DNA of 64,000 nt from Bacteroidota bacterium (lineage in GTDB: Bacteria > Bacteroidota > Ignavibacteria > Kapaibacteriales > DASPKH01). How positions within the stretch are numbered: the stretch's first letter is position 1; each line of letters opens with the position of its first letter. Location of the stretch: the NCBI GenBank assembly GCA_040386315.1, contig JAZKFS010000020.1, positions 4,620-68,619 of the forward strand, written 5' to 3'. The translations under genes and the position numbers were made by a program. Under the pieces are notes generated by a model. That model made no database searches and was not told where the DNA came from. It saw only the letters and a program-made list of their open reading frames with translations. Shown here one piece after another: positions 10,477-59,227 of the stretch.

Positions 10477-10502
10477 ATCTACACCTCTTACGTAGAAGAT
10501 AT

Positions 10503-10542
10503 GTATAAAAATGGGCAACAACGGATTGCGCCATTGTTGCCC
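10503..10542 (-). terminator. Hairpin plus U-tract downstream of the 1029-aa gene (intra-operon terminator/attenuator)
   Basis: GGGCAACAA (10513-10521) pairs with TTGTTGCCC (10534-10542) across a 12-nt loop. On the minus strand it is followed by ATTTTTATAC. Confidence 0.5.
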
Positions 10543-13636: not shown

Positions 13637-13681
13637 AATGCTTTCTCCTAATTTTGTAAATAGGACCATTGAATAAAAACT

Positions 13682-24608: not shown

Positions 24609-24677
24609 TATCCTTCTCGCTTTCTGGTGATTTTGGAATATTAAAAGATTTTTTAAACACTCTTGGGATAACAATAG

Positions 24678-24751
24678 TGCGCCCGAAGGGGATCGAACCC
24701 CCAGCCTTTGGAATCGGAATCCAACGCTCTATCCAATTGAGCTACGGGCGC
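24678..24751 (-). tRNA. tRNA-Arg (anticodon CCG)
   Basis: The reverse complement folds as a cloverleaf: acceptor GCGCCCG/CGGGCGC, D arm GCTC-AATTGGATA-GAGC, anticodon arm TTGGA-TTCCGAT-TCCAA, T arm with the TTCGATC loop, discriminator A. No encoded CCA. Confidence 0.9.
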
Positions 24752-24765
24752 CTCTACATTATTAT

Positions 24766-25016
24766 TTTTAAAAGACTGCTGCTAATCTTTTAAAAGCAAG
24801 TTGCAAATATAGCAGTCCCAAGCTCAAAAACAAATGAATTTTTTTTTAAAGTTTTTTTAAAAAGCAAATTTTGTGGAAAACTTTTCTACTTTCCCTTTTA
24901 AAAAGTGTCAGGTTTTTTTCATAGTGTCAGGTTTATTACACACTTTTTATTCTGACACTTTACACTTTTTAAAAAATCTTTTAAAAACTTGTTTTAAAAC
25001 TTCACGGTTTTTAAAA
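24766..25016. repeat. Array of 8 TTTTAAAA copies (E1 terminator / tRNA promoter region)
   Basis: Copies start at 24766, 24788, 24855, 24896, 24967, 24979, 24992 and 25009. Confidence 0.85.
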
Positions 25017-27198
25017 CAGCAGCTTTAATATCTTCAGAATTTAAAAGAGTGGCAGTTTCCAAAACTTTTGAAAAACCAACCGGAGTAAATTTAGAACCAA
25101 CACGAGCAACAGGAGCATCCAGATAGCGGAAAAGCTCTTCGCCAATAGCAGCCGCAACCTCACCACCAAATCCACCCATCACTTTATCTTCATGCGCGAC
25201 AATTGCACGGCCTGTTTTCTTCACGGATTCAAAAACTCTTTCCTTGTCCCATGGAGAAAGCGAACGTAAGTCAATGACCTCTAACGAAATACCGTCCTTT
25301 TCGAGTTCCCCCGCAGCTTTTAAAGCGATATGAACGGCGTTTCCGTAGGAAATGACCGTTGCAGCTGTTCCTTCACGGCGAACTTTTGCTTTTCCAAATG
25401 GAATTATAAAATCTTCGCCCGGAATGGAAGCGGACGTTCCGCGGAAATTATACAAGAATTTCGGCTCTAAAAACATCGTCGTTCCGCGTGAACGAATCGA
25501 ATTGCGCATAAGCCCGATAGCGTCATCCGCAAACGCCGGACACACCACGCGAATTCCCGGCAGCGTCGTAAATGTTCCTTCCAAATTCTGGGAGTGGTAC
25601 AAACCGCCTTGGATATAACCACCGCTCGCCAGGCGAATAACGATATTCGGCGAAAACTGCCCTTTCGTGCGCCAGTAATCATGCGAGCACTCAATCAACT
25701 GCTCCATTGCCGGCCAGAAATAATCCGCGAATTCCGCGCCTTCTACCACAACGCGAATATCGTCTCTATACCGCGAGAAACCATTTGCTGTTCCAACGAT
25801 ATAATCTTCAGCTATCGGCGCGTTGAAAACACGCTCATTGCCGAATTCATCGAGCAAACCTTTGCAAACGTTAAAAATACCCTGCTTTTTCTTCGACGCT
25901 ACGTCCTGTCCCCAAAGGAAAGTATTTTCATTGCGGCGGAATTCCTCGATGAGCGTCTGATTAATTGCTTCGCGAAGCATCAGTTGCGGCTCTTCCGGCT
26001 TGCTGGTATATTTTGCTTCGGAATTATCGTCGTAATTCACGATCGGGTCAGGAAGCAAAAACTGCGAATACGATTCCGGGGCAGGGTCAGCCGCAGCTTC
26101 ACCACGGTCAGCCGCAGCGTAAATCGCTTTCACGTTTTCGTCTTCCAGCTCTTTAATTTGCTCGTCTGTTAGGATTCCTTTTTCAATCAGCAGCGCGCGC
26201 ATACGAGTAAGCGGGTCACGGGCGCGAACTTCCTCAATTTCTTCTTTCGTGCGATAAAGCTCCTGATTGTCAGAATTCGAATGCGAGCCGATACGGTCGC
26301 AATCTGCGTGGACCATCGCCGGGCCTTCGCCGGAAAGCACATAATTACGAGCTTCCTGCATCGCGCGGAATGAATCGAACGGGTCACGTCCGTCACAGTT
26401 GATAATTTTTAAATATTTAAAACCAACGAAATTGTCTGAAATATTCGTATTCGCCGACTGCTCGTGAACCGGAACGGAAATCCCAAATTTATTATTCTGA
26501 ATCACGAAAATCACCGGAAGGCGTTCGCGCGAAGCTCCATTCACGGCTTCATAGAAATATCCTTCAGAGCAAGCCGACTCACCGCCGGAATAAATTGAAA
26601 TCTCGTCGCCTTTATATTTTTTAATCGCGCGCGCTACACCGGCTGCGTGCTGCGAGTGATTTCCCGTGCAGCTCGAACCGTTCTGAATACGGATAGACGG
26701 TTTTGCAAAGTGATTGCTCATGTGACGTCCGCCGCCGGCAACATCTCCGTCCTTGCTCAAACCGTTTAAAATTAGTTCATCAACCGTGATTCCCGCCGCC
26801 AAACACGTCATCATGTCGCGGTAATACGGGAAAAGAAAATCTTTTCCCTGGCGGAAAGTCAAACCGGTTGCCAACTGAATCCCGTCATGTCCCGCGAACG
26901 GCGCATGATACGACCAGCCCTTCGCCACTTTTAAATACATCGCAGCTTTTTCATCCAGGCGACGTCCAAGATGCATCATTTTGTACCACTCGATTATCGT
27001 CGCGTTATCAAAACCCGTCGTATCGAATGTGCTGAAATGATTCACCGGCTGCTTTGCTTCAGCAGGTTTTGCAGTTGATTTCCCGTTTTTAGCGGGCGCA
27101 GTTTTATTATTAGAGCCATTCACAGCGGGCTTTTGAGTACCATTTGCTTTTGGCTTTGTTTCTTTAATTGGAGCTTTTGCTTGAGATTTCGTTGCCAT
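24994..27198 (-). CDS. Branched-chain 2-oxoacid dehydrogenase E1 component, fused alpha+beta subunits (TPP-dependent)
   Basis: 734 aa. Alpha part with the TPP motif GGESACSEGYFYEAVN, beta part REAINQTLIEEF...FLWGQDV and the C-terminal transketolase-like domain. K/A/P-rich N-terminal extension of about 55 aa. Confidence 0.85.
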   Translation of the reverse strand: MATKSQAKAPIKETKPKANGTQKPAVNGSNNKTAPAKNGKSTAKPAEAKQPVNHFSTFDTTGFDNATIIEWYKMMHLGRRLDEKAAMYLKVAKGWSYHAPFAGHDGIQLATGLTFRQGKDFLFPYYRDMMTCLAAGITVDELILNGLSKDGDVAGGGRHMSNHFAKPSIRIQNGSSCTGNHSQHAAGVARAIKKYKGDEISIYSGGESACSEGYFYEAVNGASRERLPVIFVIQNNKFGISVPVHEQSANTNISDNFVGFKYLKIINCDGRDPFDSFRAMQEARNYVLSGEGPAMVHADCDRIGSHSNSDNQELYRTKEEIEEVRARDPLTRMRALLIEKGILTDEQIKELEDENVKAIYAAADRGEAAADPAPESYSQFLLPDPIVNYDDNSEAKYTSKPEEPQLMLREAINQTLIEEFRRNENTFLWGQDVASKKKQGIFNVCKGLLDEFGNERVFNAPIAEDYIVGTANGFSRYRDDIRVVVEGAEFADYFWPAMEQLIECSHDYWRTKGQFSPNIVIRLASGGYIQGGLYHSQNLEGTFTTLPGIRVVCPAFADDAIGLMRNSIRSRGTTMFLEPKFLYNFRGTSASIPGEDFIIPFGKAKVRREGTAATVISYGNAVHIALKAAGELEKDGISLEVIDLRSLSPWDKERVFESVKKTGRAIVAHEDKVMGGFGGEVAAAIGEELFRYLDAPVARVGSKFTPVGFSKVLETATLLNSEDIKAAVLKTVKF

Positions 27199-27227
27199 AG
27201 TTTCCTCTGGAAGGAAATTCCTATATT

Positions 27228-27296
27228 TTTTAAAACCTTGTTTTTAAAAACTTTTTACTATTTGAGATACCGACTTTTTAAAAGATTCTTTTAAAA
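27228..27296. repeat. 4 TTTTAAAA copies in the 98-bp ilvE/E1 spacer
   Basis: Copies start at 27228, 27242, 27276 and 27289. Confidence 0.85.
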
Positions 27297-28262
27297 TCAA
27301 TTATGCTCTACCGCAGCTTTTTTATCCGAACTGAATTTTTCAAAATCCACATACGTCAGCCAGCCGTGGTCATCTTTTCCGTCACATACGATTGAGAAGA
27401 ATTTGTCCTGAATTTTATGCGTAATTTCACCCACTGTTCCATCACCGATTTTAATTCCATCTACCGAACGAACCGGAGTAATTTCAGCCGCTGTTCCCGT
27501 AAAGAAAATCTCGTCTGCTGTATACAGCGATGCACGTGGAACAGAACCTTCAATCACTTCGTAGCCCATTTCTTTCGCCAGCGTAATAATGGAAGCACGT
27601 GTAACGCCCGGCAAAATTGAAGCTCCAAGTGACGGGGTAATGATTTTTCCATCAGCAACAAAAAAGATATTCTGACCGCTGCCTTCGCTTACGCAACCAT
27701 TTCCGTCAAGCGTGATTCCTTCTGAATATCCGTGACGATGCGCCTCGATTTTTACAAGCTGCGAATTCAGGTAATTTCCGCCCGCTTTTGAAATTGTCGG
27801 CATCGTGTTTGGTGAAATCCTATTCCAGCTCGAAACGCCAACATCTACGCCTTCGCGAATTGCATCTTTGCCGAGATATTTGCCCCAATTCCACGTTGCG
27901 ATAATCAGCTCAACCGGGCAATTTAAAGGAAAAACACCAAGTTCTTCATAGCCGCGATATGCAAGCGGGCGAATGTAGCATTCCTCAATATGATTTTTCC
28001 CGACAATATCAAGCGTCGCCTGGCAAATCTCATCAACAGAATATGGAAGGTCAGCGTAGTAAATCCGCGCCGAATGATACAGCCGCTCGATATGCTCGCG
28101 CAGGCGGAAAATCGCCGTTCCCTTCGGAGTTTTGTACGCGCGGATGCCTTCAAACCAGCTCGAACCGTAGTGCATTACGTGCGAAAGTACATGTATTTTC
28201 GCATCGTCCCAGCGCACAAATTCGCCGTTCATCCATATATAATCTGTCTTTGGCAGAGGCAT
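27297..28262 (-). CDS. ilvE: Branched-chain-amino-acid aminotransferase (class IV PLP enzyme)
   Basis: MNGEFVRWDDAKIHVLSHVMHYGSSWFEGIRAY..., TISKAGGNYLNSQL, GVTRASII, EIFFTGTAAEITPV. Confidence 0.9.
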   Translation of the reverse strand: MPLPKTDYIWMNGEFVRWDDAKIHVLSHVMHYGSSWFEGIRAYKTPKGTAIFRLREHIERLYHSARIYYADLPYSVDEICQATLDIVGKNHIEECYIRPLAYRGYEELGVFPLNCPVELIIATWNWGKYLGKDAIREGVDVGVSSWNRISPNTMPTISKAGGNYLNSQLVKIEAHRHGYSEGITLDGNGCVSEGSGQNIFFVADGKIITPSLGASILPGVTRASIITLAKEMGYEVIEGSVPRASLYTADEIFFTGTAAEITPVRSVDGIKIGDGTVGEITHKIQDKFFSIVCDGKDDHGWLTYVDFEKFSSDKKAAVEHN

Positions 28263-28275
28263 AGTGTTCCTCGTT

Positions 28276-28387
28276 TTTTAAAAAGAATACGGTGAAAAAT
28301 CGCAGCTCTTTTTAAAAGCTTTCATAAAATTTTTACTTTTAAAAACTTTACAAAAGCTTTTGAAAACTGCTTTCCTGTTTTTTAAAA
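28276..28387. repeat. 4 TTTTAAAA copies in the gatB/ilvE spacer
   Basis: Copies start at 28276, 28310, 28337 and 28380. Confidence 0.85.
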
Positions 28388-28419
28388 CCCCCTTTCAACC
28401 CAACTGCTATGCGCTCTTT

Positions 28420-29868
28420 TTATGCTTGCTCTAAATGCTTTTTCAATGTTTCTGTCACAAGGCGCGGATTGCCCTTGCCCTGCGTGGCTTTTAAAACTGT
28501 TCCGACCATAAACCCGAAAAGATTCGTGCGACCGGCTTTATATTCTGCCACTTTATCCTGATTTTCTTTTAAAAAGTTGATGACCAGCTCATCAATCATT
28601 CCCGTATCGGAAACCTGCGCCAATCCGCGCTTTTCAACGATTTCCTTCGGCGATTCACCTTTTAAAACATCAGGGAAAATTTCCTTCGCGATTTTACTGC
28701 TAATCACATCCGCCGCGAAAAGGTCAACCAATTCCGCCAGCAATCTCGGCTGAACTCCGGTTTCCTGCGCTTCGATTTTTTTATCGCTCATAATGCGCAT
28801 CACGTCCGTCATCACCCAGTTGCTTACGAGTTTAAAACGGTCTTTCGATTTTTCAGCAAGGAATTCGCAGCACTCTTCAAAATACGCCGCGAGAGATTTT
28901 TCCTCAACCAAAACCGCCGCATCATACTCCGGCAAACCATACTGGTTTTTAAAACGGTCACGTTTTGCGCCCGGCAGCTCCGGCAGCTCATGCTTCACGC
29001 GATGAATCCACGCCTCGCTCACATTCACCGGCACTAAATCCGGCTCCGGGAAATATCTGTAATCGTGCGCTTTTTCCTTCGTACGCATTTCACGGGTTTG
29101 CTGCTTGCCCGCGTCCCACTGAAGCGTAATCTGGCGAACTTCACCACCCGATTTCGTCAGCTCGATTTGCCGCTGAATTTCATATTCCAGCGCTTTTTCC
29201 ACGTTGCGAAAACTATTCAAATTCTTCACTTCGGTGCGAGTGTACAGCTTATTATCGCCCTTCGGACGAACCGACACGTTCGCATCACAGCGCAGCGAAC
29301 CTTCTTCCATATTCCCGTCGCAAATCCCAAGATACATCACGGTCTGGCGGATATGCGCGAGATATTTATACGCTTCCTGTGGCGTGCGGATATCCGGCTC
29401 GGACACAATCTCAATCAGCGGCACACCCGAACGGTTCAAGTCCACAAGCGTGTCAATATCAAGGTCGTGAATGGATTTACCCGCGTCTTCCTCCATGTGA
29501 ATCCGCGTAATCCCAATTTTCTTTTTTGCGCCATCGTGCTCGATTTCCACATGACCATCATAGCAAATCGGGTCTTCATACTGCGAAATCTGGTAGCCCT
29601 TCGGCAAATCCGGATAGAAATAATTTTTGCGCGAAAAAGTCGAAACCGGGCGAATATTGCAATTCGTCGCCAAGCCCATTCTTAATGTGTACTCGACAAC
29701 ATTATTATTCAAAACCGGCAAACATCCCGGATGCCCGAGGCACACCGGACACGTATTCGTATTCGGCGAAGCGCCATACACCGTCGAGCAACGGCAAAAC
29801 GCCTTCGTCGCTGTCAGCAACTGAACGTGAACCTCAAGGCCTATGACCGCTTCAAAATCTGCGTGCAT
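28420..29868 (-). CDS. gatB: Asp-tRNA(Asn)/Glu-tRNA(Gln) amidotransferase subunit B
   Basis: EAVIGLEVHVQL, KAFCRCS...NTNTCPVCLGHPGCLPVLN, RIHMEEDAGK, and a C-terminal YqeY-like tail. Confidence 0.95.
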   Translation of the reverse strand: MHADFEAVIGLEVHVQLLTATKAFCRCSTVYGASPNTNTCPVCLGHPGCLPVLNNNVVEYTLRMGLATNCNIRPVSTFSRKNYFYPDLPKGYQISQYEDPICYDGHVEIEHDGAKKKIGITRIHMEEDAGKSIHDLDIDTLVDLNRSGVPLIEIVSEPDIRTPQEAYKYLAHIRQTVMYLGICDGNMEEGSLRCDANVSVRPKGDNKLYTRTEVKNLNSFRNVEKALEYEIQRQIELTKSGGEVRQITLQWDAGKQQTREMRTKEKAHDYRYFPEPDLVPVNVSEAWIHRVKHELPELPGAKRDRFKNQYGLPEYDAAVLVEEKSLAAYFEECCEFLAEKSKDRFKLVSNWVMTDVMRIMSDKKIEAQETGVQPRLLAELVDLFAADVISSKIAKEIFPDVLKGESPKEIVEKRGLAQVSDTGMIDELVINFLKENQDKVAEYKAGRTNLFGFMVGTVLKATQGKGNPRLVTETLKKHLEQA

Positions 29869-30843: not shown

Positions 30844-33800
30844 TTAAAAAGATTGTACAGAAATAGAGGTCGTTTCCTGTGATTTATTCCGATGCTTCAC
30901 AGCATTTTCGCCATCGCCAATCGCTTCATACGCTTCGGCGAGTGTAATGTGAATTTTCCGCTCATCGCTTTTCGCATTACTTTCTGTCACGATTTCCAGG
31001 CTTTCTTTTAAAAGCCCGATCGCTTCGTTAACTTTCCCGGTTTTTAAAAGGATGTTTGCGGTTTCCGTCAGGCACGACGCTTCGCCCATTGTATTTCCGA
31101 TCGCGCGGAAAATGGCGAGCGCTTCGGCCAAGTATTCCAGCGCTTTTTCATTGTCTTCCTGCCGCACGAATGCACCGCCGAGTTTTAAAAGCGTGAGCGC
31201 TTCACCTTTTTTATCGCCGATCTTCCTGCGCAGGTCTAAACTTTTAAAATGATAATCGAGCGCGGTGGCATTATCGCCGAGATGCGCGTAATACGAACCA
31301 ATATTATTCAGCGAACTCGCCTCGCCGAATTTATCGCCAAGCTCACGTTTTATCTCCAGGCTTTGAAACTGATAATTCAGCGCGCGTTCGTGTTCGCCCA
31401 TCGCGCTGTAGAGATTGCCGATATTATTCAGCGCGAAGGACTGCGACTGACGATTGCCATTTTCCTCGTGCATTTTCAGGCTTTGCAGGTAATGTTTTAA
31501 AGCGCGCTGGTGCTCGCCCATGTTTTTAAAAGCATTGCCGATATTATTATGCGAAGCGGCAACGCCAAATTCATCACCGGAGGCCTCAAACATTGCCTGG
31601 CTTTGCTGCGCATATTGGAGCGATTTCGGGTAATTTCCCAGATCATAATACACGGTTGAAAGACGGTTAAAACTGGATGCTTCGCCTTTTACATCGCCGA
31701 TCTTTTTAAAAATCGCGGCAGATTCTTCAAATTTTGCAATTGCCGCCGGTTGCAATCCAACTCGCCAGTAACACGTCGCCGCATGCTGAATACTTGTGGC
31801 AAGCCCGATCGTATAGCCCATTTTCTCGGAAAGGCGATATGTCTCATCGCAGATTTTTAAAGCTTCCTGCGGGTCAATTTTCGACTTGTACATCGCCAGC
31901 GAATTCAGCGCGTCAATGCGTTCGGTTTCCAGCGAAAGCGTTTTGATCTTTTCTTCTAAAGCGCGAATTGTGTCAGGAATGGAATGCGTGATTTCCGCTT
32001 CATTTGCAAGCGGGATCTCAAACAAAAATGCTGCGCCGTGGCCGGGTTCGCTTTCGCACCAGATCTTCGCGTTCATCGCTTCGCTGAGTTTTTTTACGAT
32101 CGAAAGTCCAAGCCCGGTGGATGATTCGCCACCCGTTGGCAAAGCCGAAAGCCGGGCGAATTTTCCGAATAATTTTTGCTTGTCGTCATCATTCAACCCC
32201 GGCCCTTCGTCCTGCACTTTTAAAACCGCCGTTTTTAAAACGCTTTTTTCGATGCTGATAGTGACGGATTTTCCATGCGGCGAATATTTTATGGCGTTGG
32301 AAATAAGATTGTCGAGAACTTCCTGGAGTGCGTGTTTATCAGCTTTTACCGTAAGCGAATGAAGCTGCGTTTTAAAAACAATCGAAATATTTTTAGCATT
32401 TGCGCGCTCGCGATATTCTTCACTGAGCTGCCGCGCGATGGAAACAATATCCAGCACTTCCAGCGAAATATTGATCTTACCCGACTCAATTGCATTCACG
32501 TCCAGCAGGTTTGAAACGATGTCGCGCATCCGCGTTGCCGTTGTTTCGATGGACTTAATTTTATCGAGAATTTTCTCTTTTGAAAACCTGTCGTAGTAGC
32601 GCGAAAGGATTTCCGACGAAAGAATAATCGCAGCAAGCGGATTTTTTAAATCATGCGCCGCGATGCCGAGAAATTCATTTTTTTCGTTATTTAATTCCGT
32701 CAGATATTGATTCGCTTCCAGCAGATTTTTATTTAAAGCTTCGGTTTCTTCCTGCGAATCCACAAGCCGCTCGTTCAGCATTTGCACTTTTTCGAGTGCC
32801 TGCGCAATTTCCACATTTTTTAAACGGTAGATTTCCGCATTTAAAGCTTCTCGTTCAGCTTTTTCCTTATCGCGTTTTAAAATTGAAATCCTGTCTGCCA
32901 GCGCAACGGAAAGCAAGACAACTTCAAGCGCCGAGCCAACCTGAACGCCATATTGCGTGATAAGATTATTCGGCAAAACGCCAACCGTTTTTAAAACAAA
33001 AATGAAAAGCCCGGCGACAAACACAGCCCACGCGCTCACATAAAACCGCGCCGGACGATAGCCGTTTTTCAAACTCAAAATCGCCGCCGCGATCACCATT
33101 CCAACAAACGGAAATGCCATCGCAATTGCAATACGGATGAGAACGGAATATTCTATAAAAAGCGAAAGCGCGATCAGCAGCAGACTTGAGTACATCTGCC
33201 ACGTGATGAATTTATTAAGCTTCGGAGTGTTGACTTTAGTGTTTAAAAATTCCTTCGTAAAAATGAGCGCAAAACACTGAAACGCAAACGCGGAAAACAT
33301 CAGCGCTTTATTCGCCCACCACGGCGACTGCGGCCATAGATATTCAAACGACAGCCCGTTGATCGTCATTTGAAAAAGCGTGAAAAACACGAGGTAGCCG
33401 GTGTAGGAAACGTAGGTGCGGTCGCGCAGGAAGATAAAAACGGAGAGATTGTACAGCACCATGATAAGCATAATGCCGTAATACAGCCCAAGCACGATCT
33501 GCTCTTCGTGGTCTTTCGCGATGAATGCCTGCATGCTCCAGAGCGTGAGCGGGATCTGCACCGAACCGCTTGTTTGCAGGCGCATGTAGTAGGTGTTCGA
33601 CGTGTTTTTTTCGAGAGGAAGGCGGAAAATAATATTGCGGTGCTTCAGCTCGCGCATTGAAAACGGGAATTTATCGCCCGAGGCAACTTTTTTAAAACTT
33701 CCGTCCAGCTGCGCTGTATAAAGCTGTGCTTCATCAAGAACGGGATAGCTCAGTTCCAGCAGCCATTCAGCCGATTCTTCCAGCGAATTAACCACCGTAA

Positions 33801-34071
33801 AGCGCACCCAAAAAGCAGATTTCGTCAGGCCGTAGCCCGGCACATCTTCCTTGCTTTTTAAAAACTTTCCTGAATTTTCGGGCGACGAAACATTTGCAAT
33901 GGTGAGCTTCCCGGCTTTATCCTCCAGAATTTCAAGATGTTTACCAAGCACAACTTTGCCGGCTTTGTCGCTGAGCACAGCCGTTTCCTGCGCCGCGCCT
34001 TTAAAAGGCAGACAGCACAGGAGGAAAACGAATATTTTTAAAAACTGCGGAAGGCGCGGCTGTGCTGTCAT
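30844..34071 (-). CDS. Sensor histidine kinase: 7TMR-DISM extracellular domain, 7 TM, HisKA/HATPase, and a C-terminal TPR array of about 330 aa
   Basis: 1075 aa. Signal peptide and periplasmic domain, seven hydrophobic helices (aa about 190-400), coiled coil, H-box IAAHDLKNPL, N/G boxes NLISNAIKYSP...DEGPGL...GLGLSIVKKL, then about 8 TPR-like repeats (NNIGN.Y...G....AL.Y..QSL). Confidence 0.85.
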   Translation of the reverse strand: MTAQPRLPQFLKIFVFLLCCLPFKGAAQETAVLSDKAGKVVLGKHLEILEDKAGKLTIANVSSPENSGKFLKSKEDVPGYGLTKSAFWVRFTVVNSLEESAEWLLELSYPVLDEAQLYTAQLDGSFKKVASGDKFPFSMRELKHRNIIFRLPLEKNTSNTYYMRLQTSGSVQIPLTLWSMQAFIAKDHEEQIVLGLYYGIMLIMVLYNLSVFIFLRDRTYVSYTGYLVFFTLFQMTINGLSFEYLWPQSPWWANKALMFSAFAFQCFALIFTKEFLNTKVNTPKLNKFITWQMYSSLLLIALSLFIEYSVLIRIAIAMAFPFVGMVIAAAILSLKNGYRPARFYVSAWAVFVAGLFIFVLKTVGVLPNNLITQYGVQVGSALEVVLLSVALADRISILKRDKEKAEREALNAEIYRLKNVEIAQALEKVQMLNERLVDSQEETEALNKNLLEANQYLTELNNEKNEFLGIAAHDLKNPLAAIILSSEILSRYYDRFSKEKILDKIKSIETTATRMRDIVSNLLDVNAIESGKINISLEVLDIVSIARQLSEEYRERANAKNISIVFKTQLHSLTVKADKHALQEVLDNLISNAIKYSPHGKSVTISIEKSVLKTAVLKVQDEGPGLNDDDKQKLFGKFARLSALPTGGESSTGLGLSIVKKLSEAMNAKIWCESEPGHGAAFLFEIPLANEAEITHSIPDTIRALEEKIKTLSLETERIDALNSLAMYKSKIDPQEALKICDETYRLSEKMGYTIGLATSIQHAATCYWRVGLQPAAIAKFEESAAIFKKIGDVKGEASSFNRLSTVYYDLGNYPKSLQYAQQSQAMFEASGDEFGVAASHNNIGNAFKNMGEHQRALKHYLQSLKMHEENGNRQSQSFALNNIGNLYSAMGEHERALNYQFQSLEIKRELGDKFGEASSLNNIGSYYAHLGDNATALDYHFKSLDLRRKIGDKKGEALTLLKLGGAFVRQEDNEKALEYLAEALAIFRAIGNTMGEASCLTETANILLKTGKVNEAIGLLKESLEIVTESNAKSDERKIHITLAEAYEAIGDGENAVKHRNKSQETTSISVQSF

Positions 34072-34175
34072 AAAAAATGGGGTGGTGAAACCTTTTTAAA
34101 ACTTCTTTTAAAAGGAAATTTGGGAATTCTTTTAAAAACCTAAGCTCAAATATACCAATTATTTGCCTTTTAAAA
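34036..34175. repeat. 5 TTTTAAAA copies spanning the kinase start / mutase-subunit stop
   Basis: Copies start at 34036, 34094, 34106, 34130 and 34168. Confidence 0.85.
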
Positions 34176-35580
34176 CATCAATCGTCCCACGAATCTGAAA
34201 CAGCTTCCGTGCGATATCCGATTGCTCTTCAGTATGTTTGTCGTAGCGCTTGCTATCTTCCGCGATTTCTGCCAAATATCTCGTTCTCTCCGGCGGAATA
34301 ATATGGATTTTCTCACTCATTTCAGCGGTAATTTCATATTTTGAAGCCCAGTCGAGCTTCATTTTCTCAGTGATCTTATTGATAATTGCGCGGTACAAAG
34401 AATTCGTGCCGGGGTCATTAAACTGCGCAGCAATTGATCCATACACCGGCATTTCCTCAAGCGGCTTGCCGAAAAGCTGGCGGCTGCGCTGATACTGCTT
34501 GCGCACGTCGCGGATCGCATCGAGTGCACCACGTTTGTCAAATTTATTTAAAGCAATAATATCGGCATAATCAATCATGTCAATTTTTTCAAGCTGCGTC
34601 GCGGCACCATATTCCGGCGTCATCACGTAAAGCGACACGTCGGCGATTTCCGTGATTTCCGAATCGCTCTGGCCAATTCCCGCCGTTTCTACAATTATCA
34701 GGTCAAAGCCCGCAGCTTTTAAAACTTCCAGCGATGTCTGCACATTTTTGTTTAGCGCCACGTTTGCTTCGCGCGTAGCGAATGAGCGCATGTATACGCG
34801 ATCGTTGCTCACGGAATTCATGCGAATCCTGTCGCCCAAAAGCGCACCACCCGTTTTGCGTTTCGACGGGTCAACTGACACAACAGCAATTGTTTTATCT
34901 TTAAAATCCACGAGGAATCGGCGAACAAGCTCATCCGTCAACGAGGATTTCCCCGCACCGCCCGTTCCGGTAATTCCCAGAACGGGAATTACTTTTTCTT
35001 CAGCCGCACCCTGTAGCCCTTTTAAAAACTTCGCGCTTTCTTCCGGATTATTTTCAATGAGCGTAATCGCCTGCGCGATCGCCAGCGGATTCTTTTTAAA
35101 AACTTCGCTCTGCAGATTGTTTTTAAAAGTCACCGGCGTTTCATAGTCCGACTGCTGGATTACGTCGTTGATCATTCCCTGCAAGCCTAGCGAACGTCCG
35201 TCATCCGGCGAATAAATTCGCGTGATTCCGTACTTGTGCAATTCATCAATTTCTGTGGGCAGGATCGTTCCACCGCCGCCGCCGAAAATCTTGATGTGCC
35301 CTGCACCACGTTCTTTTAAAAGGTCGAACATATATTTAAAATACTCAACGTGACCGCCCTGGTAGCTCGTGATCGCGACAGATTGTGCGTCTTCCTGTAT
35401 CGCGCAGTCCACGATCTCCTGCACTGAGCGGTTATGCCCGAGGTGGATCACTTCCGCGCCCGTGCCTTGCAAAATTCGGCGCATGATATTAATTGCCGCG
35501 TCGTGCCCGTCGAAAAGCGATGCGGCTGTGACGATGCGGACTTTATTTTTTGGTTTGTATGCTTCGGCAGGGGTGGTCAT
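34159..35580 (-). CDS. B12-binding domain + MeaB-type G-protein chaperone (equivalent to the N-terminal two domains of fused isobutyryl-CoA mutase IcmF)
   Basis: 473 aa. Cobalamin DxHxxG motif [13 protein letters not shown] with ...VIHLGHNRS...ITSYQGGH. P-loop [26 protein letters not shown]. Confidence 0.8.
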
Positions 35581-35614
35581 ATATTTTTTTAAAAGTAAAG
35601 TTTTTAAAAGTGCT

Positions 35615-37111
35615 TTAAAAATGAAACTGACCGCTTATATAAAGAACGGTTGCAGTAAGATTATGCGATAAAGCGGGAATTGAATTACTATATTTACGCC
35701 CAAAATTTTCAACTGATGCATCATATTTCGGCGTTACAAAATCCGGCACCACATGTTGGCGTACCGATACATGATATGATACACTCGGAGTTACATAATA
35801 TCCAACTGAACCACCTATCATCCACCCGATTAAAGATTCAGCCTTTTCAAATATCAGCGGCGGCTGGGGTTGAATTCCTTCATCCGCAGGAGCAGGGTAC
35901 GTAAGCCTGCCATTTACACTAGCATTTGTAACTGTAGCTCCAAGTGCAATGGAGGTTTCAAATCCTGCCGGGCTTAAAACCAATGGCGAATTAATGATGA
36001 ACACTCCATATACTGTACCTGATAGGGTGCGTACTGCATAGAAATCCTGATCTTCAGGAAACGGCTCATTGAGTAATTTACCCGGTAAGAACTCAGCCCC
36101 GATACGTAAGCGACGTGTTATAGAATATTCAGCATTAATGGTGTAGCCAAAATAGCGTGTTAAATTAATCTCCGTTGGAGACTTGATATCAGGAAGTGCG
36201 GCGGCTAATCCCAGGGACAGATGAAATCTTTTCATATATGTCTTGGTTTCTTCATCAGTGATTGGAAGCTTGCTCTCTTTTAATGCCTCTGCTGTTTCGA
36301 TTGATCGTTTCACTTCCGGTGGAATTCGTATAGTATTATTAATGATAGATTCACTCTCCAGTATACTTTGCCATTGATTAAAGATCTCCTTTCTCCTTCC
36401 GATTATTATATCGGAGTATTGGGTGTATCCATATAGCGCGCCATAACCTGCGCCTAGAAGCATACTTGGAACTATATCTATACTATTATACTGCCTGCTA
36501 ATCCTCTCCATAATATACCACCCTAAGGCTCCCGCTGTAGCTACGGTTCCGGCTTTTACTGAAGTATTCAGCAGTGGCCGGTCTTTAAAATGGATTTTAT
36601 CAATATCCTGAAATGAAATAACCTGAATATTCTTCTCTGCTTCACGCCAGCTATATTTCTCGGAATTCTTCCAGATTCCGAGCAAGGAATCATTGACGAA
36701 TAATAAGCGACCGCTAATATCTCTACCTTCGCTTGTCACCCGCACTACTTTTCCATCCGCCGGTTCTATTTCAGATATTCTGACATATTTCCGTACTACA
36801 GGATTTGCTTTAAATCTTTCCGGCTCTTCAGCATTCTCGATGTATGACTTTATTTCTTCTGCATCTTTAAAGCTGATCGTAAAGTTTGTATCATTACGCT
36901 CTTTTCTGGTAATGATTATTGTAATAGAATCAGCGTTTTTCTCAGCTCTTGCCGATACAAATCGTCCAATATCATAAAACAGTCCGAAATATACACGTTC
37001 ATCCGCATCTATTCCATCACCTACACGTTCACTTATCCTATACTTTTCGCTCTGACCAAAACTTACTACAAATCCGATAAAAAATATAACTACAATCCTT
37101 ACCAATAGCAT
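35615..37111 (-). CDS. Hypothetical envelope protein (signal peptide, probable C-terminal beta-barrel)
   Basis: ORF listed to 37144. The likely start is [20 protein letters not shown] at 37111. The C-terminal third has alternating strand-like segments and ends ...LYISGQFHF. Confidence 0.5.
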
Positions 37112-37155
37112 TTTCAAATCTCTGTAATGAATTCTAAAGCACAAAATTACGAAGT

Positions 37156-37327
37156 TTTTAAAAGATTATTCTGTTTGTCATCTGTTTTTTAAAAGAAAGC
37201 CAATATACTCTTTTAAAAGCTTGTTGTAAAAATGTTTTTAAAAGGATTTTACCAGCGAACAAAGCGTTAATTTTGTAATCTTTTATAAATTTATAAATCC
37301 TTGTAAAACTTTGTCAATCTTTTAAAA
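37156..37327. repeat. 5 TTTTAAAA copies in a divergent promoter region
   Basis: Copies start at 37156, 37187, 37211, 37236 and 37320. Confidence 0.85.
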
Positions 37328-37336
37328 ATAGAAATT

Positions 37337-38614
37337 ATGTTCAGACCAGTTTCCCCAGCCGAAGCCGTTTCCGTGATAAAATCGGGCGACCGCGTGTATG
37401 TGCACAGCGTTGCCGCCGCGCCGCAAGTTCTTATTAATGCTATGACCGAACGTGCGAATGAACTTAAAAACGTAGAAGTTGTGCATCTTCATACCGAGGG
37501 CAATGCGCCGTATGCTGCGCCCGGGATGGAAGAGAGTTTTTCGGTGAATGTGCTTTTTACGGGTGCAAATGTGCGTGAGGCGGTGCAGAGTGGCCGCGCG
37601 AATTACGTTCCGGTATTTTTGAGCGAGGTTCCGGCGCTTTTCCGCTTGAAAATTCTACCGCTCGACGTAGCGCTGGTGCAGGTTTCTGTGCCGGATAAGC
37701 ATGGATATTGTTCGCTTGGAATTTCCGTTGATGCCACGCTTGCGGCGGTGCAGTCGGCGAAAGTGACGATTGCGCAGATGAACCCGCAGATGCCGCGCAC
37801 GCATGGTGACAGTATGATCCATATCAGCAAATTCCACGCGTTTATTGAGGCGGACGAGCCGCTGTGCATTCATGAAGAGCATCCGCCGTCGGAGGACGAA
37901 CTCGCGATTGGGCGTCATGTAGCGGAATTGATTGAAAACGGCGCGACGCTGCAAATGGGTATTGGCGCGATTCCGAACGCGGTTCTGGCGTCGCTCACGA
38001 ATCATAAAGGGCTGGGAATCCACACGGAAATGTTCTCTGACGGCGTGATTCCGCTGGTGGAGCGTGGCATTATCACGGGCGAGCACAAGAAAATTTATAA
38101 AAATAAAATCGTGTCGGGTTTTGTGATGGGCACGCGAAAATTGTACGATTTTATTGACGACAATCCGAAGGTCGCCATGCTCGACATCGCGTATGTGAAC
38201 GACACGGCGAATATCCGCAAAAACCCGAAAGTAACGGCGATAAATAGCGCAATCGAGGTGGACCTGAGCGGGCAGGTGTGCGCGGACACTATCGGCACGC
38301 GGCAGTTTTCCGGTGTGGGTGGGCAGATGGACTTTATCCGCGGGGCATCGCTCTCGGAAGGCGGCAAGCCGATAATCGCGCTGCCATCAGCTACAAAGCG
38401 CGGCGAATCACGCATCACGACGTTTTTAAAACAGGGCGCAGGCGTTACAACCACGCGCGCGCACGTGCACTACATCGTAACGGAATACGGAGTGGCCTAT
38501 CTCTACGGGCGCAACATGGCGCAGCGTGCCAAAGCGCTCATCGCCATCGCACATCCCGACCACCGCGAACGCCTTGAACGCGAGGCGCATGAGGCGCGGT
38601 TGTTGAGGTTTTAA
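37337..38614 (+). CDS. Acetyl-CoA hydrolase/transferase family enzyme (4-hydroxybutyrate / butyryl-CoA:acetate CoA-transferase type)
   Basis: 425 aa. LQMGIGAIPNAV, HTEMFSDG, NSAIEVDLSGQVCAD...SGVGGQMDF, TTRAHVHYIVTEYG. The TAA stop lies inside a TTTTAAAA copy (38609). Confidence 0.8.
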   Translation: MFRPVSPAEAVSVIKSGDRVYVHSVAAAPQVLINAMTERANELKNVEVVHLHTEGNAPYAAPGMEESFSVNVLFTGANVREAVQSGRANYVPVFLSEVPALFRLKILPLDVALVQVSVPDKHGYCSLGISVDATLAAVQSAKVTIAQMNPQMPRTHGDSMIHISKFHAFIEADEPLCIHEEHPPSEDELAIGRHVAELIENGATLQMGIGAIPNAVLASLTNHKGLGIHTEMFSDGVIPLVERGIITGEHKKIYKNKIVSGFVMGTRKLYDFIDDNPKVAMLDIAYVNDTANIRKNPKVTAINSAIEVDLSGQVCADTIGTRQFSGVGGQMDFIRGASLSEGGKPIIALPSATKRGESRITTFLKQGAGVTTTRAHVHYIVTEYGVAYLYGRNMAQRAKALIAIAHPDHRERLEREAHEARLLRF

Positions 38615-38689
38615 AAAAGTGTTTTTAAAGGAATATTTTTAAAATGAAATCCTGCTTTCGGGCGGGATTTTTAAGAGAGTGTTTATACG

Positions 38690-39277
38690 ATGTCAGTAAG
38701 CCAGCTTCTTCAGGTAATGAAATATATGTCTCCCGGCATCCCGGATGAGGAATTGGATAACTTACTGCTAATGCTGAGCGAAGGACAGGTTTCCCGTGGT
38801 GAGCATCTTGTGACTGCAGGCCAGAATTTCAGGTTTATAAACTTTATTACGAAGGGTGCTGCCAGGATGTATCACCTTCATAAAAACGGGAACGAAACGA
38901 ATATAATTCTTGGTGTGGAAAATGACTTCGTCCAGGATTATGAAAGCCTGATAAAAGGGAAGACCTCTGATTTTTATGTTCAGGCGACCGAAGATTCATC
39001 CTTTATTCATATTGATTATAATAAATTTGAAGAATTGTTGGGCTCTACCAAACACTGGGAACACTGCGGACGGATGATAAATCAGTTCGTACTGCTCGGT
39101 GTTTTCGCTAGCGCGCAATCCTTTATGTTTTTGACGCCGCAGGAACGCTATCTGAAACTACTCCGTGAGCAGCCCCGCCTTATACAGCGGTTTTCGCAGG
39201 AACACATTGCGTCGTATCTTGGCATAAAACGTGAATCTCTGAGCCGGATAAAAAATCGCGTAGCACGACGATTTTAA
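38690..39277 (+). CDS. Crp/Fnr-family transcriptional regulator
   Basis: 195 aa. N-terminal cNMP-binding-like beta-roll, C-terminal HTH QEHIASYLGIKRESLSRIKNR. Confidence 0.75.
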   Translation: MSVSQLLQVMKYMSPGIPDEELDNLLLMLSEGQVSRGEHLVTAGQNFRFINFITKGAARMYHLHKNGNETNIILGVENDFVQDYESLIKGKTSDFYVQATEDSSFIHIDYNKFEELLGSTKHWEHCGRMINQFVLLGVFASAQSFMFLTPQERYLKLLREQPRLIQRFSQEHIASYLGIKRESLSRIKNRVARRF

Positions 39278-39366
39278 CCAAAGTCACATATTTTTATACC
39301 GTCGGCTCTGCATTTTTGTTTTTATAAATAACCACATTTTTAAAAACATCAATCGGAGAATTCCTA

Positions 39367-39846
39367 ATGAAAATTACCATCAGGGAAGCCGCACTGTGGC
39401 TTGGCATGTTTTTCTTTTCCATTCTCATCGGGGCGACAATATACCAGATGCTCGTCATCGTACCCGAGTTCACGCGCGACATACCTCATTCAATGATAAA
39501 CTTCGCCCGGGGCAATATCCACACCTTTGCTTTTTGGGCATCGCCTATCCTGCCGGTGGGGTTCTTTCTTGTAGTAATTGCCCTTGTTCTCAACTGGAAG
39601 ACGCCGCGAAAAAAATGGCTGATTTTTTCAATTTCACTGGCTGTCGTGGGAGAAATAATAACTATTCTCCTTGTTTATCCGCAGCTGAAGCTAATGGGCC
39701 TTCTGGACGGAATGCCAACTACCGATGTTTCTCTTCTGGCCGCAACTATAAAAAACTTCGTTGTAGCCGACCAACTCAGATTTTTCCTGCTGGCAATTCC
39801 TTCATTTTTCTTTTATCTCAAGGCACTGACTATAAGAGTTGAGTAG
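39367..39846 (+). CDS. Small integral membrane protein (4 TM; DUF1772-like)
   Basis: 159 aa with four hydrophobic helices. The overlapping alternate-frame ORF 39396..39842 is rejected. Confidence 0.5.
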   Translation: MKITIREAALWLGMFFFSILIGATIYQMLVIVPEFTRDIPHSMINFARGNIHTFAFWASPILPVGFFLVVIALVLNWKTPRKKWLIFSISLAVVGEIITILLVYPQLKLMGLLDGMPTTDVSLLAATIKNFVVADQLRFFLLAIPSFFFYLKALTIRVE

Positions 39847-39866
39847 TTGTTTAAAAAAAAGAAAAA

Positions 39867-39989
39867 GGAATCCAGCGGATTCCCATGTTTATAGAAAATA
39901 TGTCCGAATAATGTTTGTGCGACCCCAGCCGGGGTCGAACCTTTTTAAAAATGCTTTGGAGCTATAAATCTGTAATCCCTCTGGGATTA
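39867..39989. repeat. Three consecutive short GC-stem hairpins (REP-like), two of them followed by T-runs
   Basis: GGAATCCagcGGATTCC (39867-39883), CGACCCCagccGGGGTCG (39920-39937, then aaccTTTTT), TAATCCCtctGGGATTA (39973-39989, then TTTTT). Confidence 0.6.
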
Positions 39990-40051
39990 TTTTTAAAAGA
40001 AGTTTTTCTGTAATTTTAAAAAGTGCTTTTTAAAAATTATCACTGAGCTTT

Positions 40052-41035
40052 ATGTCTGAAGAAAAGCTGACACCGACGCGTTTAGTTTTTATACCGTTTT
40101 TGATTATTTCTATTCTATTTCCAGTAATTTATAGCCTCCTACATTGGCTGCTTCTTACGAATTACGAAATTTTTGAATTTGACATTTTGGTTGATTATTT
40201 TCTACCAATATTGCTTGCTTTGGGACTTTACGTAGTATTTATAAATTCACGGATTGACTTATTAGACCATACAATAACAGATAATGTGCATTATGATGGA
40301 GGGAAATTTCTTTTTATAATTGCGGCGATAGGGATTACAGTACCAACGATAATTCTTCAGAAGACCGTTCATGAAATAGCAGGAAAGATAACTGAGCTAG
40401 GAGCAATCAGCGAAATCAAGCAGCACCGACCGACAAAATATTATAATTTGAAAAGTTATTTCATAGAAAAGAATTATCCTGGAATTTATACAAATGAATG
40501 GAATTATAAACTTAACACCAATTTTGATGTATATATAGTCGCTCCTATACTGAATTCTGCTCAGGATACTAATTTGCCAAAGTATGATGCTTGGATAGGA
40601 AAAATTTATCGCTTTGATATTGATAAAAATGAAAACAGCAAGGTGAAGGAACAAGCATTTGAGAGTTTCACTAATAAAAGCATCGAAAGTTTTAAAAATA
40701 GTACGTTTACCGGCTTTAATCATTTGGAGCGAATGCGACAAGACGTTTCGGCTTATCAGCTAGCGGCATATCAAACTGATAAGGCAGATACGGAGCCGAT
40801 AATTTTTGAGGCAAAGTTTGAACCTTTTGAAGCAAGAGCAGAGGGTGACTTAGAGCTTTGTATTTTTATTTACTGTATTTCAACGGCAGCATTCTTTTTC
40901 TTAACCTATAATAAACCATTTAATAAATACAGGTTAAGCCGCTTTTTAAAAATTCCTTACGAAGATCAACGCCAACCTGTAAGAGACCCGAATTACAAAT
41001 CAAAAAAACGTCGCAATCGCTCGCAGAATCTTTAA
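40052..41035 (+). CDS. Hypothetical membrane protein (AT-rich orphan)
   Basis: 327 aa. Several N-terminal TM helices, one late TM, basic tail [13 protein letters not shown] recognise no motif. Confidence 0.45.
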
Positions 41036-41111
41036 AATCCAAACAAACCTCTCCATATTTCGTCCTTGTGTCGTAAATTTGCAGGAGTTTTTAAAAACAA
41101 CGGACAGCACT

Positions 41112-43139
41112 ATGCAAACCCAATCTACGACCGGACATACAGATAATATTACGAATGGAAAAAACGGCCACGCAAATGGCCACGGGAGCGAACTTGTCGC
41201 CGAGCTGGAGCGTCGCTATGCGGAGCTGGAGGCACGGCTTTCGCCCGATGTGCGCGAGCTGCTTAAAGGGTGGGAAGCCAAAAAGCAAAATTACCTTGAT
41301 GAGAATTTCACCTACACCGTTCGTGGGAAGGATATTAAGGTGAAAAATTCTACGAAGTCGCTCAGCCAGCTCGATATTCCGAAGGTGTCCGTGCCGAAGT
41401 ACAAGGATTGGGGCGAAATCGTGAGCTGGTCGCTGCAGGAGAATTTCCCCGGCGAATTTCCGTACACGGCGGGCGTGTATCCTTTTAAAAGGCAGGGCGA
41501 AGACCCGACGCGGATGTTTGCCGGAGAAGGCGGGCCGGAGCGCACGAACCGCCGTTTTCACTATCTGAGCTTAGGAATGCCGGCCGCGCGCCTTTCGACG
41601 GCGTTTGACTCGGTGACGCTGTATGGCGAAGACCCCGATGAGCGCCCGGATATTTACGGCAAAATCGGCAATTCCGGCGTTTCTATCGCGACGCTTGATG
41701 ATGCGAAAAAGCTGTATTCGGGTTTTGACCTGTGCGCGCCAACAACGTCTGTTTCCATGACGATTAACGGCCCGGCGCCAATGCTGCTCGCGTTTTTTAT
41801 GAATGCGGCGATTGACCAGCAGTGCGAAAAATATATTGTTGAAAATGGTCTTGAAACTGAAATTGAACAAAAATTAGAAGATATTTTTAAAAAGAAAGGA
41901 ATCGAGCGTCCGCGCTACAGCGGCGACCTGCCGGAAGGAAATAACGGCCTCGGGCTGAGGCTTCTTGGCGTGACGGGCGACGAAGTTCTGCCAGCTGACG
42001 TGTACGCAAAATGCAAGCAAACCGCGCTGCAATCGGTTCGCGGAACGGTGCAGGCGGACATTTTAAAAGAAGACCAGGCGCAGAATACGTGTATTTTTTC
42101 GACGGAATTTGCGCTGCGCATGATGGGCGATATTCAGCAGTATTTTATTGAGAAAAAAGTCCGCAATTTCTACTCGGTTTCCATTTCGGGTTATCACATT
42201 GCCGAGGCCGGTGCAAATCCTGTTACGCAGCTTGCGCTCACGCTTTCCAATGGTTTTACCTTTGTGGAATATTACCTTTCGCGCGGTATGCACATTGACG
42301 ATTTCGCGCCGAATCTTTCCTTTTTCTTTTCAAACGGCATTGACCCGGAATATTCCGTGATTGGCCGCGTGGCGCGCCGCATCTGGGCAAAAGCCATGAA
42401 GAACAAGTACGGCGGCAACGAGCGCTCGCAGATGCTGAAATATCACATCCAGACCTCGGGACGTTCGCTGCACGCGCAGGAAATTGATTTTAACGACATC
42501 CGCACGACGCTACAGGCGCTCTATGCGATTTACGACAATTGCAATTCGCTCCACACGAACGCGTACGACGAAGCAATCACAACGCCAACGGAAGAGTCCG
42601 TTCGCCGCGCCGTAGCTATCCAGCTTATCATCAACCGCGAGTTGGGTTTAGCCAAAAATGAAAATCCGCTCCAGGGCAGCTTTATTATTGAAGAATTGAC
42701 CGACCTTGTAGAAGAAGCTGTTTTAAACGAATTTAATAAGATTGCTGAACGTGGTGGCGTTCTTGGCGCGATGGAAATGATGTACCAGCGGAATAAAATC
42801 CAGGAAGAATCGCTCTACTACGAAATGCAAAAGCACACGGGCGAATATCCAATCATCGGCGTGAATACATTCCTCAGCAGCAAGGGTTCGCCGACGGTTA
42901 TCCCGCAGGAAGTAATCCGCTCGACTGACGAAGAAAAGCAATTCCAAATCAACACCGTTCGCACTTTTCAAAAGCGCAATGAAGCACATTCAGAAACAGT
43001 TTTAAAAGATTTGCAAAGCGTCGCGGTGCGCAATCAGAATATTTTTGAAGGTCTGATGGAAGCGGCGAAGGCGTGCTCGCTTGGGCAGCTTTCTCATGCG
43101 CTGTATCAGGTTGGCGGGCAGTATCGGCGGAATATGTAG
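41112..43139 (+). CDS. Acyl-CoA mutase substrate-binding (TIM-barrel) subunit, IcmF C-terminal-type (isobutyryl-CoA-mutase-like)
   Basis: The ORF is listed from a TTG at 41079; the first ATG is at 41112. [50 protein letters not shown] (methylmalonyl-CoA mutases have NTYIYPP here, from memory), [28 protein letters not shown]. Confidence 0.8.
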
Positions 43140-43346
43140 GAATTTTAAAAAGCTTTTTTTTAAAGCTCTTTTGCTTCATTGCAGAAGGGCTTTTTGCTTT
43201 TTAAATCACTTCTTTTAAAAAGGTATAATTAAAAAACAATATGAAATAATACAGTATTTCGGTATTTTGCTGAATATTACAAAAAAACAGTTTATAGAAA
43301 AGAAACTTTCTGCCTATATTCTTTTAAAGATCATTATGAGTTTTTT

Positions 43347-59078: not shown

Positions 59079-59092
59079 TGAGATTAGCGTGC

Positions 59093-59227
59093 TTTTAAAA
59101 GAAGTAGAGATAAGCTGCAAGATATGAAATAGTTTTTAAAAACCAATATTCCAGAACTCTTTTTAAAAGCCGATTCAGCTATTTCTCATAATTTTGCTTT
59201 TAAAACGTCACTGCATTCTTTTAAAAA
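59093..59227. repeat. 5 TTTTAAAA copies in a divergent promoter region (DUF2961 gene / prfC)
   Basis: Copies start at 59093, 59134, 59162, 59199 and 59220. Confidence 0.85.

Follow-up and report, generated by a model that had tools for sequence, protein, structure and literature searches.

Two genes in the stretch of DNA analysed here (the window: 64,000 nucleotides of the Bacteroidota assembly GCA_040386315.1, positions 4,620 to 68,619 of contig JAZKFS010000020.1) very likely each encode one of two subunits that together make up a naturally split IcmF, an adenosylcobalamin (AdoCbl)-dependent isobutyryl-CoA/n-butyryl-CoA mutase, and arose by fission of a single gene. In IcmF as characterised from Cupriavidus metallidurans, a cobalamin (Cbl)-binding domain, a G-protein chaperone domain, a linker and a substrate-binding TIM barrel follow one another in a single polypeptide. 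In the window the same parts, in the same order, are shared between a 473-amino-acid protein (the N-half, or small subunit) and a 675-amino-acid protein (the C-half, or large subunit), whose genes lie 5.5 kb apart on divergent strands, each with a clean start and stop. The evidence comes from the domains and complementarity of the two products, from their conserved residues, from purifying selection on both genes, from a phylogeny in which the split form is nested among fused IcmFs, and from the recurrence of the split in other organisms.

Domain content and match to IcmF

The N-half has a Pfam B12-binding domain at residues 15–113 and a MeaB domain at residues 168–364 (PF03308, E=3.5e-43, matching model positions 1–200 of 273), and the C-half belongs to the MM_CoA_mutase family (PF01642). 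Against NF045497, the NCBIfam model of IcmF, the N-half scores 693.8 bits over positions 1–465 of 1076 and the C-half 1109.7 bits, with a match reaching the model end; the two sum to 1803 bits, but each alone is below the 1500 bits that serve as equivalog cutoff for a whole protein. Alignment with the C. metallidurans IcmF structure (4xc6, residues cited in its tagged numbering) places residues 9–472 of the N-half on 42–506 of the chain (phmmer, E=1.9e-158), and the C-half, in two segments, on the remainder (E=9e-265; 23–251 on 506–733, 295–675 on 733–1113). Because the N-half covers 42–506 and the C-half extends from 506 to the C-terminus at 1113, the two genes are, as aligned, exactly complementary parts of IcmF, with no segment lost or duplicated. 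The initial annotation of the window had read the smaller protein as a B12 domain fused to a MeaB-type GTPase without a barrel, and the larger as the C-terminal barrel of IcmF; both readings are upheld by these comparisons. The residues that fall between the two aligned segments of the C-half (252–294) are also present in fused IcmFs of Bacteroidota and Leptospira, which align across them in a single segment, so this insertion is not specific to the split form. The barrel open reading frame could alternatively start at a TTG codon (41079), giving 686 amino acids; the 675-residue product of the ATG at 41112 is 100% identical to the database protein P0121.

Does the barrel have the substrate pocket of IcmF or that of methylmalonyl-CoA mutase (MCM)? 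The alignment of specificity residues that the initial annotation had suggested pairs Phe136 and Gln324 of the barrel with Phe598 and Gln742 of IcmF, in place of the Tyr and Arg found at these positions in the MCMs of Mycobacterium tuberculosis and humans (2-hydroxyisobutyryl-CoA mutase, HCM, has Ile at the first), and the MCM equivalog NF006944 gives 332 bits against a cutoff of 876. When motif conservation was counted over the best 120 homologue clusters for each half, TRMFAGEG, which includes Phe136, was found in 119, the motif containing Gln324 in all 120, and the His-ligand motif FDGHDAAIN in 118, while the P-loop, switch II and NKFD were essentially invariant. The DGHD of the N-half aligns with that of IcmF, and its switch III residues Q329 and K332, also invariant, correspond to Q341 and K344, which are needed for the GTPase activity of IcmF (PMC10481361). 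NTCIFSTEF is present in the barrel protein, and the other motifs quoted in the initial annotation were likewise all found. Nor does the 473-residue protein fit a stand-alone MeaB better than it fits IcmF, since TIGR00750, which represents stand-alone MeaB/MMAA proteins, yields 157 bits against a cutoff of 240.75.

The same architecture could conceivably act mainly on another substrate, such as isovaleryl-CoA or pivalyl-CoA. Fused IcmF has a minor pivalyl-CoA mutase (PCM) activity, structures with isovaleryl-CoA and pivalyl-CoA bound are available (5cjv, 5cjw), and no pathway genes in the window fix the substrate; but with both specificity residues and the motifs around them identical to those of characterised IcmF, we regard such a preference as quite unlikely. 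Dedicated PCM activity is said, in work of Kitanishi et al. from 2015, to require a change of Phe598.

Both genes are under strong purifying selection. Measured against the locus L081, from a relative with 95%/98% identity, the N-half gives a dN/dS (the ratio of nonsynonymous to synonymous substitution) of 0.052 and the C-half one of 0.045, alongside 0.055 for the housekeeping gene gatB, 0.058 for a nearby CoA-transferase gene, and 0.45 for the gene of a poorly conserved membrane protein adjoining the barrel. It is hardly credible, then, that the pair are fragments of a broken, non-functional icmF, or an artefact of assembly. Frameshifts or runs of N do interrupt icmF at four of the other loci discussed below, but location on opposite strands, the 5.5-kb gap and the clean starts and stops exclude such an origin here, as do the dN/dS values of about 0.05 in both halves, the intactness of all catalytic motifs, and the recurrence of this boundary in over 25 independent assemblies as well as hundreds of clusters of metagenomic proteins. 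As a separate observation, synonymous divergence (dS) from L081 differs about two-fold between the halves (0.62 for the N-half, 0.29 for the C-half), which could reflect recombination or differing locus histories.

Distribution and origin of the split form

Split IcmF is a widespread and conserved architecture, common in Ignavibacteria and Kapabacteria-like bacteria. Among the top 120 clusters retrieved with each half, 115 of those of the N type are 450–500 residues long, and 114 of those of the C type 650–700. The named sources of these half-length proteins are Bacteroidetes/Bacteroidota, Kapabacteria and Ignavibacteria metagenome-assembled genomes (MAGs), and their database labels are "cobalamin-dependent protein" or "hypothetical protein" at NCBI, and "methylmalonyl-CoA mutase" in most sources. 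A survey of relatives had been proposed in the initial annotation, and it shows that the split is conserved and not peculiar to the window: among 83 related loci that were fetched (numbered with the prefix L), 51 were fused and 27 split. The fused ones are from Leptospira, Pedobacter, Solitalea, Hymenobacter, Flavobacteriales, Chitinophagales and a few Kapabacteria-like MAGs. Four loci, L017, L033, L071 and L076, were left out of the split count; they are MAG loci with a seemingly fused icmF broken by frameshifts or N runs, and these interruptions probably stem from errors in assembly or sequencing, not from genuine splitting. In the accessible literature the G-protein is either stand-alone or a domain of full IcmF, and in the literature searched by full text, outside which lies the original 2010 paper, we found no description of a natural IcmF split into a B12-plus-G-protein part and a barrel.

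The split N-halves, 469–485 residues long, all end a few residues past a conserved helix, L[YFW]Q[VLI][KR]G[TAS][IL]..L. An AlphaFold2 (AF2) model of the N-half of the window (pLDDT 79; TMq 0.77 against 4xc6, at 54% identity) accordingly terminates in a long helix, residues 430–472. In the model of the C-half, residues 1–24 have a pLDDT of about 30 and are followed by helices at 25–41 and 45–62; this leader of some 22–24 residues has no counterpart in fused IcmF, the alignment with 4xc6 beginning at residue 23 of the query. Because fused relatives have a short and variable segment at the corresponding place (in Solitalea it reads LLKSQAEPQAETIGQLEQLY), the cut lies within a variable, probably disordered loop, at about native residue 486, in the part of IcmF regarded as linker in a cryo-EM study that represented the enzyme by two rigid bodies (residues 22–442 and 443–1093).

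Did the two-gene arrangement precede the fused enzyme, or follow it? Neighbour-joining trees with 100 bootstraps, rooted on C. metallidurans IcmF as one distant outgroup, contain a main split clade of 23 N-halves and 12 C-halves, including those of the window, that adjoins the fused IcmFs of Leptospira and is nested among those of Bacteroidota. Its monophyly was recovered in 22/100 bootstraps for the N part, 73/100 for the C part and 70/100 for the two concatenated, and its members are 70–77% identical to fused IcmFs of Bacteroidota and Leptospira, compared with 62% for the outgroup. The N and C trees agree, and the window groups with L081 in 100/100. The placement of one further locus, L026, is ambiguous. 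Two split loci from Bacteroidia MAGs, L040 and L041, never join the main clade, and in the concatenated tree (which did not include L041) L040 groups with fused Sphingobacteriales in 94/100. At L040 (positions 11300–11620) the two halves adjoin each other and share a reading frame, with three stop codons, the N-half's own and two more, within about 13 codons before the next ATG; at L041 (8730–9200) they are separated by a spacer of about 230 nucleotides. Since fused IcmFs surround the split clade in the trees, and since L040 has a single frame interrupted by stops, the split architecture is, on this phylogenetic and sequence evidence, the product of icmF gene fission, and this one loop has been cut on at least two occasions.

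The initial annotation had called a B12–G-protein fusion without a barrel an intermediate architecture. This is apt as a description and mistaken as a step toward fusion. The order of domains (B12, G-protein, barrel) makes plausible, in principle, a relic between the three-protein IcmB/MeaI/IcmA system and fully fused IcmF, and the architecture of the pair is exactly what such a relic would have; yet the split clade is nested among fused forms and was basal to all others in none of the bootstraps (0/100 in which the others were monophyletic to its exclusion), both halves retain linker segments specific to IcmF, the fused frame at L040 is interrupted by stop codons only, and another split, of independent origin, is placed with fused Sphingobacteriales. 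A pre-fusion origin is thus very improbable. Under secondary fission, an ancestral fused icmF would have been cut within the linker loop, and the halves would then have been separated, in Ignavibacteria and Kapaibacteria by insertion of a gene encoding a DUF4397 protein, in the lineage of the window by rearrangement.

Gene neighbourhood and pathway context

The features of the two genes and of their surroundings are collected in Table 1.

Table 1. Features of the split icmF genes and neighbouring elements, in coordinates of the window
Feature	Position	Strand	Basis
IcmF N-half (small subunit), 473 aa, ATG start	34159..35580	-	Pfam, NCBIfam, phmmer, AF2
Cobalamin-binding domain, about residues 12–150 of N-half; DGHD at residues 24–27, GHNRS	35131..35547	-	PF02310, TIGR00640
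G-protein chaperone domain, about residues 167–407 of N-half; P-loop GTGGAGKSS, switch III Q329/K332, NKFD	34360..35082	-	PF03308
Long C-terminal alpha-helix of N-half, residues 430–472; first part of IcmF linker	34165..34293	-	AF2; 4xc6 about 463–506
IcmF C-half (large subunit), 675 aa: disordered leader, remaining IcmF linker, substrate TIM barrel	41112..43139	+	Pfam, NCBIfam, 4xc6 alignment
C-half leader, about 24 residues, His/Asn/Gly/Thr-rich, predicted disordered	41112..41183	+	Alignment, AF2
Phe136 codon (IcmF Phe598), first substrate-specificity residue	41517..41519	+	Alignment
Insertion of about 43 residues (252–294) relative to C. metallidurans IcmF	41865..41993	+	Gap in 4xc6 alignment
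Gln324 codon (IcmF Gln742), second specificity residue	42081..42083	+	Alignment
Terminator-like hairpin, 13-bp stem then T-run, just 3' of barrel gene	43162..43193	+	Consensus scan only
CoA-transferase of the acetyl-CoA hydrolase/transferase family	37337..38614	+ (same as barrel gene)	PF02550, PF13336
GatB, IlvE, fused E1 (alpha+beta) block, beside N-half	24994-29868	-	
tRNA-Arg(CCG), sole structured RNA detected in window	24677-24751	-	

Ten loci of Kapaibacterium, Ignavibacteria and Melioribacter have, on one strand, the N-half gene, a DUF4397 gene and the C-half gene, and in seven of the ten, homologues of GatB, IlvE and the fused E1 were detected downstream of this trio. The DUF4397 gene (L006:11341-12759, with equivalents in L008, L010, L012, L013, L014, L016, L019, L023 and L038) encodes a protein of about 470 residues with a signal-peptide-like N-terminus, only 25–34% identical among loci, against some 75–80% for the flanking halves; its insertion may date from the fission itself or from shortly afterwards. 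Two intervening genes of the window, g509 and g327, were considered as DUF4397 homologues and rejected, there being no similarity. Synteny of the gatB, ilvE and E1 block with the IcmF locus extends to distant genomes of Kapaibacterium and Ignavibacteria (52–72% identity). In the window and in L081, the barrel gene is instead on the other side of the N-half gene and on the opposite strand, behind the CoA-transferase gene and genes for small membrane proteins, and it appears that the lineage of the window lost the barrel gene from between the N-half gene and the block by rearrangement. In relatives with 82–83% identity (L084–L087) the barrel gene is solitary, and its surroundings are unrelated and include no B12-binding gene, so that a gene located far away must supply the Cbl domain. 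In the assembly GCA_019695345.1 the N-half (L004, JAIBAE010000054) and the barrel (L085, JAIBAE010000003) are on different contigs, and the two halves can be fully unlinked genes.

Such separation, in unrelated neighbourhoods in several genomes, together with the two-fold difference in dS, might indicate that the halves function independently, the B12–GTPase protein as carrier or chaperone for another client (MCM, for example), and the barrel with a different small subunit or in a different role. This seems unlikely to us: the N and C trees are congruent, both halves occur in the same assembly, no alternative B12-binding gene was found near any barrel, pieces of the linker that are contiguous in the fused enzyme have been kept, and the residues for specificity and cofactor binding are unchanged.

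In keeping with the initial annotation, a probable outer-membrane protein, a CoA-transferase and a Crp-family regulator are encoded between the halves of the window; two small membrane proteins, which it did not mention, are encoded there too. Upstream, its identification of ilvE was confirmed (441.6 bits, against an NCBIfam cutoff of 279), and the 734-residue protein is a fused alpha+beta E1 of a 2-oxoacid dehydrogenase, for which the proposed branched-chain specificity is putative. From these neighbours a route from valine through isobutyryl-CoA and butyryl-CoA to butyrate had been suggested. This context is plausible, though weakly supported: linkage of the CoA-transferase to the barrel is kept in L081, the 95% relative, but absent from L084–L087; IlvE and E1 travel with GatB; and no E2, E3, acyl-CoA dehydrogenase or adenosyltransferase was found in the window. 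The CoA-transferase scores 317 bits with the butyryl-CoA:acetate equivalog TIGR03948, below the cutoff of 674.8. It may be functionally associated with the barrel; as strong functional evidence its linkage was rejected, being confined to the 95% relative. In Clostridia, an IcmF encoded beside a CoA-transferase has been proposed to serve butyrate/isobutyrate isomerisation (PMC7764203), which offers by analogy a precedent for the pathway, not a proof of it. No cobalamin riboswitch or other RNA element, apart from one tRNA-Arg, was detected in the window.

Directly downstream of the N-half gene (30844-34071, minus strand) is a gene for a 1075-residue sensor kinase (7TMR-DISM, HisKA and TPR domains), which in L081 is replaced by a 4HBT thioesterase gene (L081:11473-11985); as the swap involves a 95% relative, this is a fast-changing neighbourhood. 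Elsewhere in the window, a giant protein of 2310 residues and several Por_Secre_tail (type IX secretion) proteins, encoded on the minus strand at 16915-23847, 10580-13669, 9658-10521 and 56406-59120, fit an organism of the Bacteroidota/Ignavibacteria group.

The proposed enzyme and its significance

As judged from sequence, the pair most likely functions as a heteromeric isobutyryl-CoA mutase (ICM) like IcmA/IcmB, with a small subunit that bears its own G-protein chaperone. The 473-residue subunit would present a cobalamin-binding Rossmann domain, covalently joined to a MeaI-type GTPase chaperone and the first linker helix; the 675-residue subunit would contribute the rest of the linker and the TIM barrel; and Cbl domain and barrel would associate non-covalently to create the active site between them, as in IcmA/IcmB, HCM and PCM, with the GTPase domain gating AdoCbl loading and the removal of damaged cofactor, as in IcmF.

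With IcmF (C. metallidurans, 4XC6; NF045497) the split pair shares the three modules and linker, at 54–62% identity, as well as the Phe/Gln pair, the His-ligand motif, the P-loop, switches II and III and NKxD; it differs in comprising two polypeptides, encoded on opposite strands here and by unlinked genes in some relatives, in the disordered leader of its barrel subunit, and in failing to reach the 1500 bits of NF045497 as a single protein. The non-covalent assembly proposed for it is that of classical ICM (Streptomyces IcmA/IcmB with MeaI), HCM (4R3U), PCM and archaeal MCM, which have separate barrel and Cbl subunits, and the small subunit of HCM (4r3u_C, E=1.9e-14) is similar to its B12 domain. 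In classical ICM, however, the G-protein is stand-alone, whereas in the split pair the G domain is covalently attached to the Cbl subunit; and the split pair, unlike IcmA/IcmB, keeps IcmF-specific linker segments and belongs by sequence to the IcmF clade. A G-protein with a Cbl domain and no attached barrel, as in the N-half, is also seen in the complex of MeaB with the MCM Cbl domain (8DPB) and in human MMAA–MMUT (8GJU), and the G domain of the N-half superimposes on MeaB and MMAA structures with TMt 0.56–0.65. The association in those complexes is non-covalent (engineered or truncated in 8DPB), whereas the N-half is a natural single polypeptide; stand-alone MeaB and MMAA have no other domain, whereas the N-half has its N-terminal B12 domain; and the C-terminal dimerisation region of MeaB is unmatched in the N-half. 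MCM has the same fold and Pfam family as the barrel, but differs from it in its Tyr/Arg pair, in domain order and in partners.

Several points weigh against the interpretation of the pair as a split IcmF arisen by fission. That the subunits assemble and are enzymatically active, and what role they have in physiology, is inferred from the proteins' sequences; the AF2 model of the barrel is poor (pLDDT 63), so that only its N-terminal secondary structure was used; the trees hang on a single distant outgroup; and the main split clade is only modestly supported as monophyletic (22/100 for the N part alone, 70–73/100 for the C part or the concatenation). Moreover, since the genes are divergent and 5.5 kb apart here, and unlinked in several relatives, operon structure permits no inference of co-regulation.

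To form a MeaB-like G-domain dimer, fused IcmF needs GTP-dependent filament formation (PMC10481361, PMC11672702). We raise tentatively, as an idea more doubtful than probable, that the split is adaptive, the Cbl/G-protein module serving as a detachable cassette whose cofactor is loaded or repaired at a distance from the active site, or forming such a dimer directly, without filaments. If this were true, recurrent fission at the same loop and long retention of the products would signify selection for dissociability, and the split form would provide a natural link from the "stand-alone" to the "fused" mechanism of chaperone action.

For annotation, the consequence of each half lying under the IcmF cutoff is that metabolic reconstructions of Ignavibacteria and Kapabacteria miss the isobutyryl-CoA/butyryl-CoA isomerase, or mis-assign it as MCM. 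The recurrent fission of icmF at one permissive loop is a clean and datable example, in which every stage can be seen, from in-frame stops through an intergenic spacer and an inserted gene to a rearranged locus and complete unlinkage of the genes. Finally, IcmF is a model for the way in which a tethered G-protein chaperone gates the loading of B12 to its client, and a chaperone tethered to the Cbl domain only would be a natural test of which steps depend on covalent attachment to the barrel, and of whether filament formation follows from fusion.

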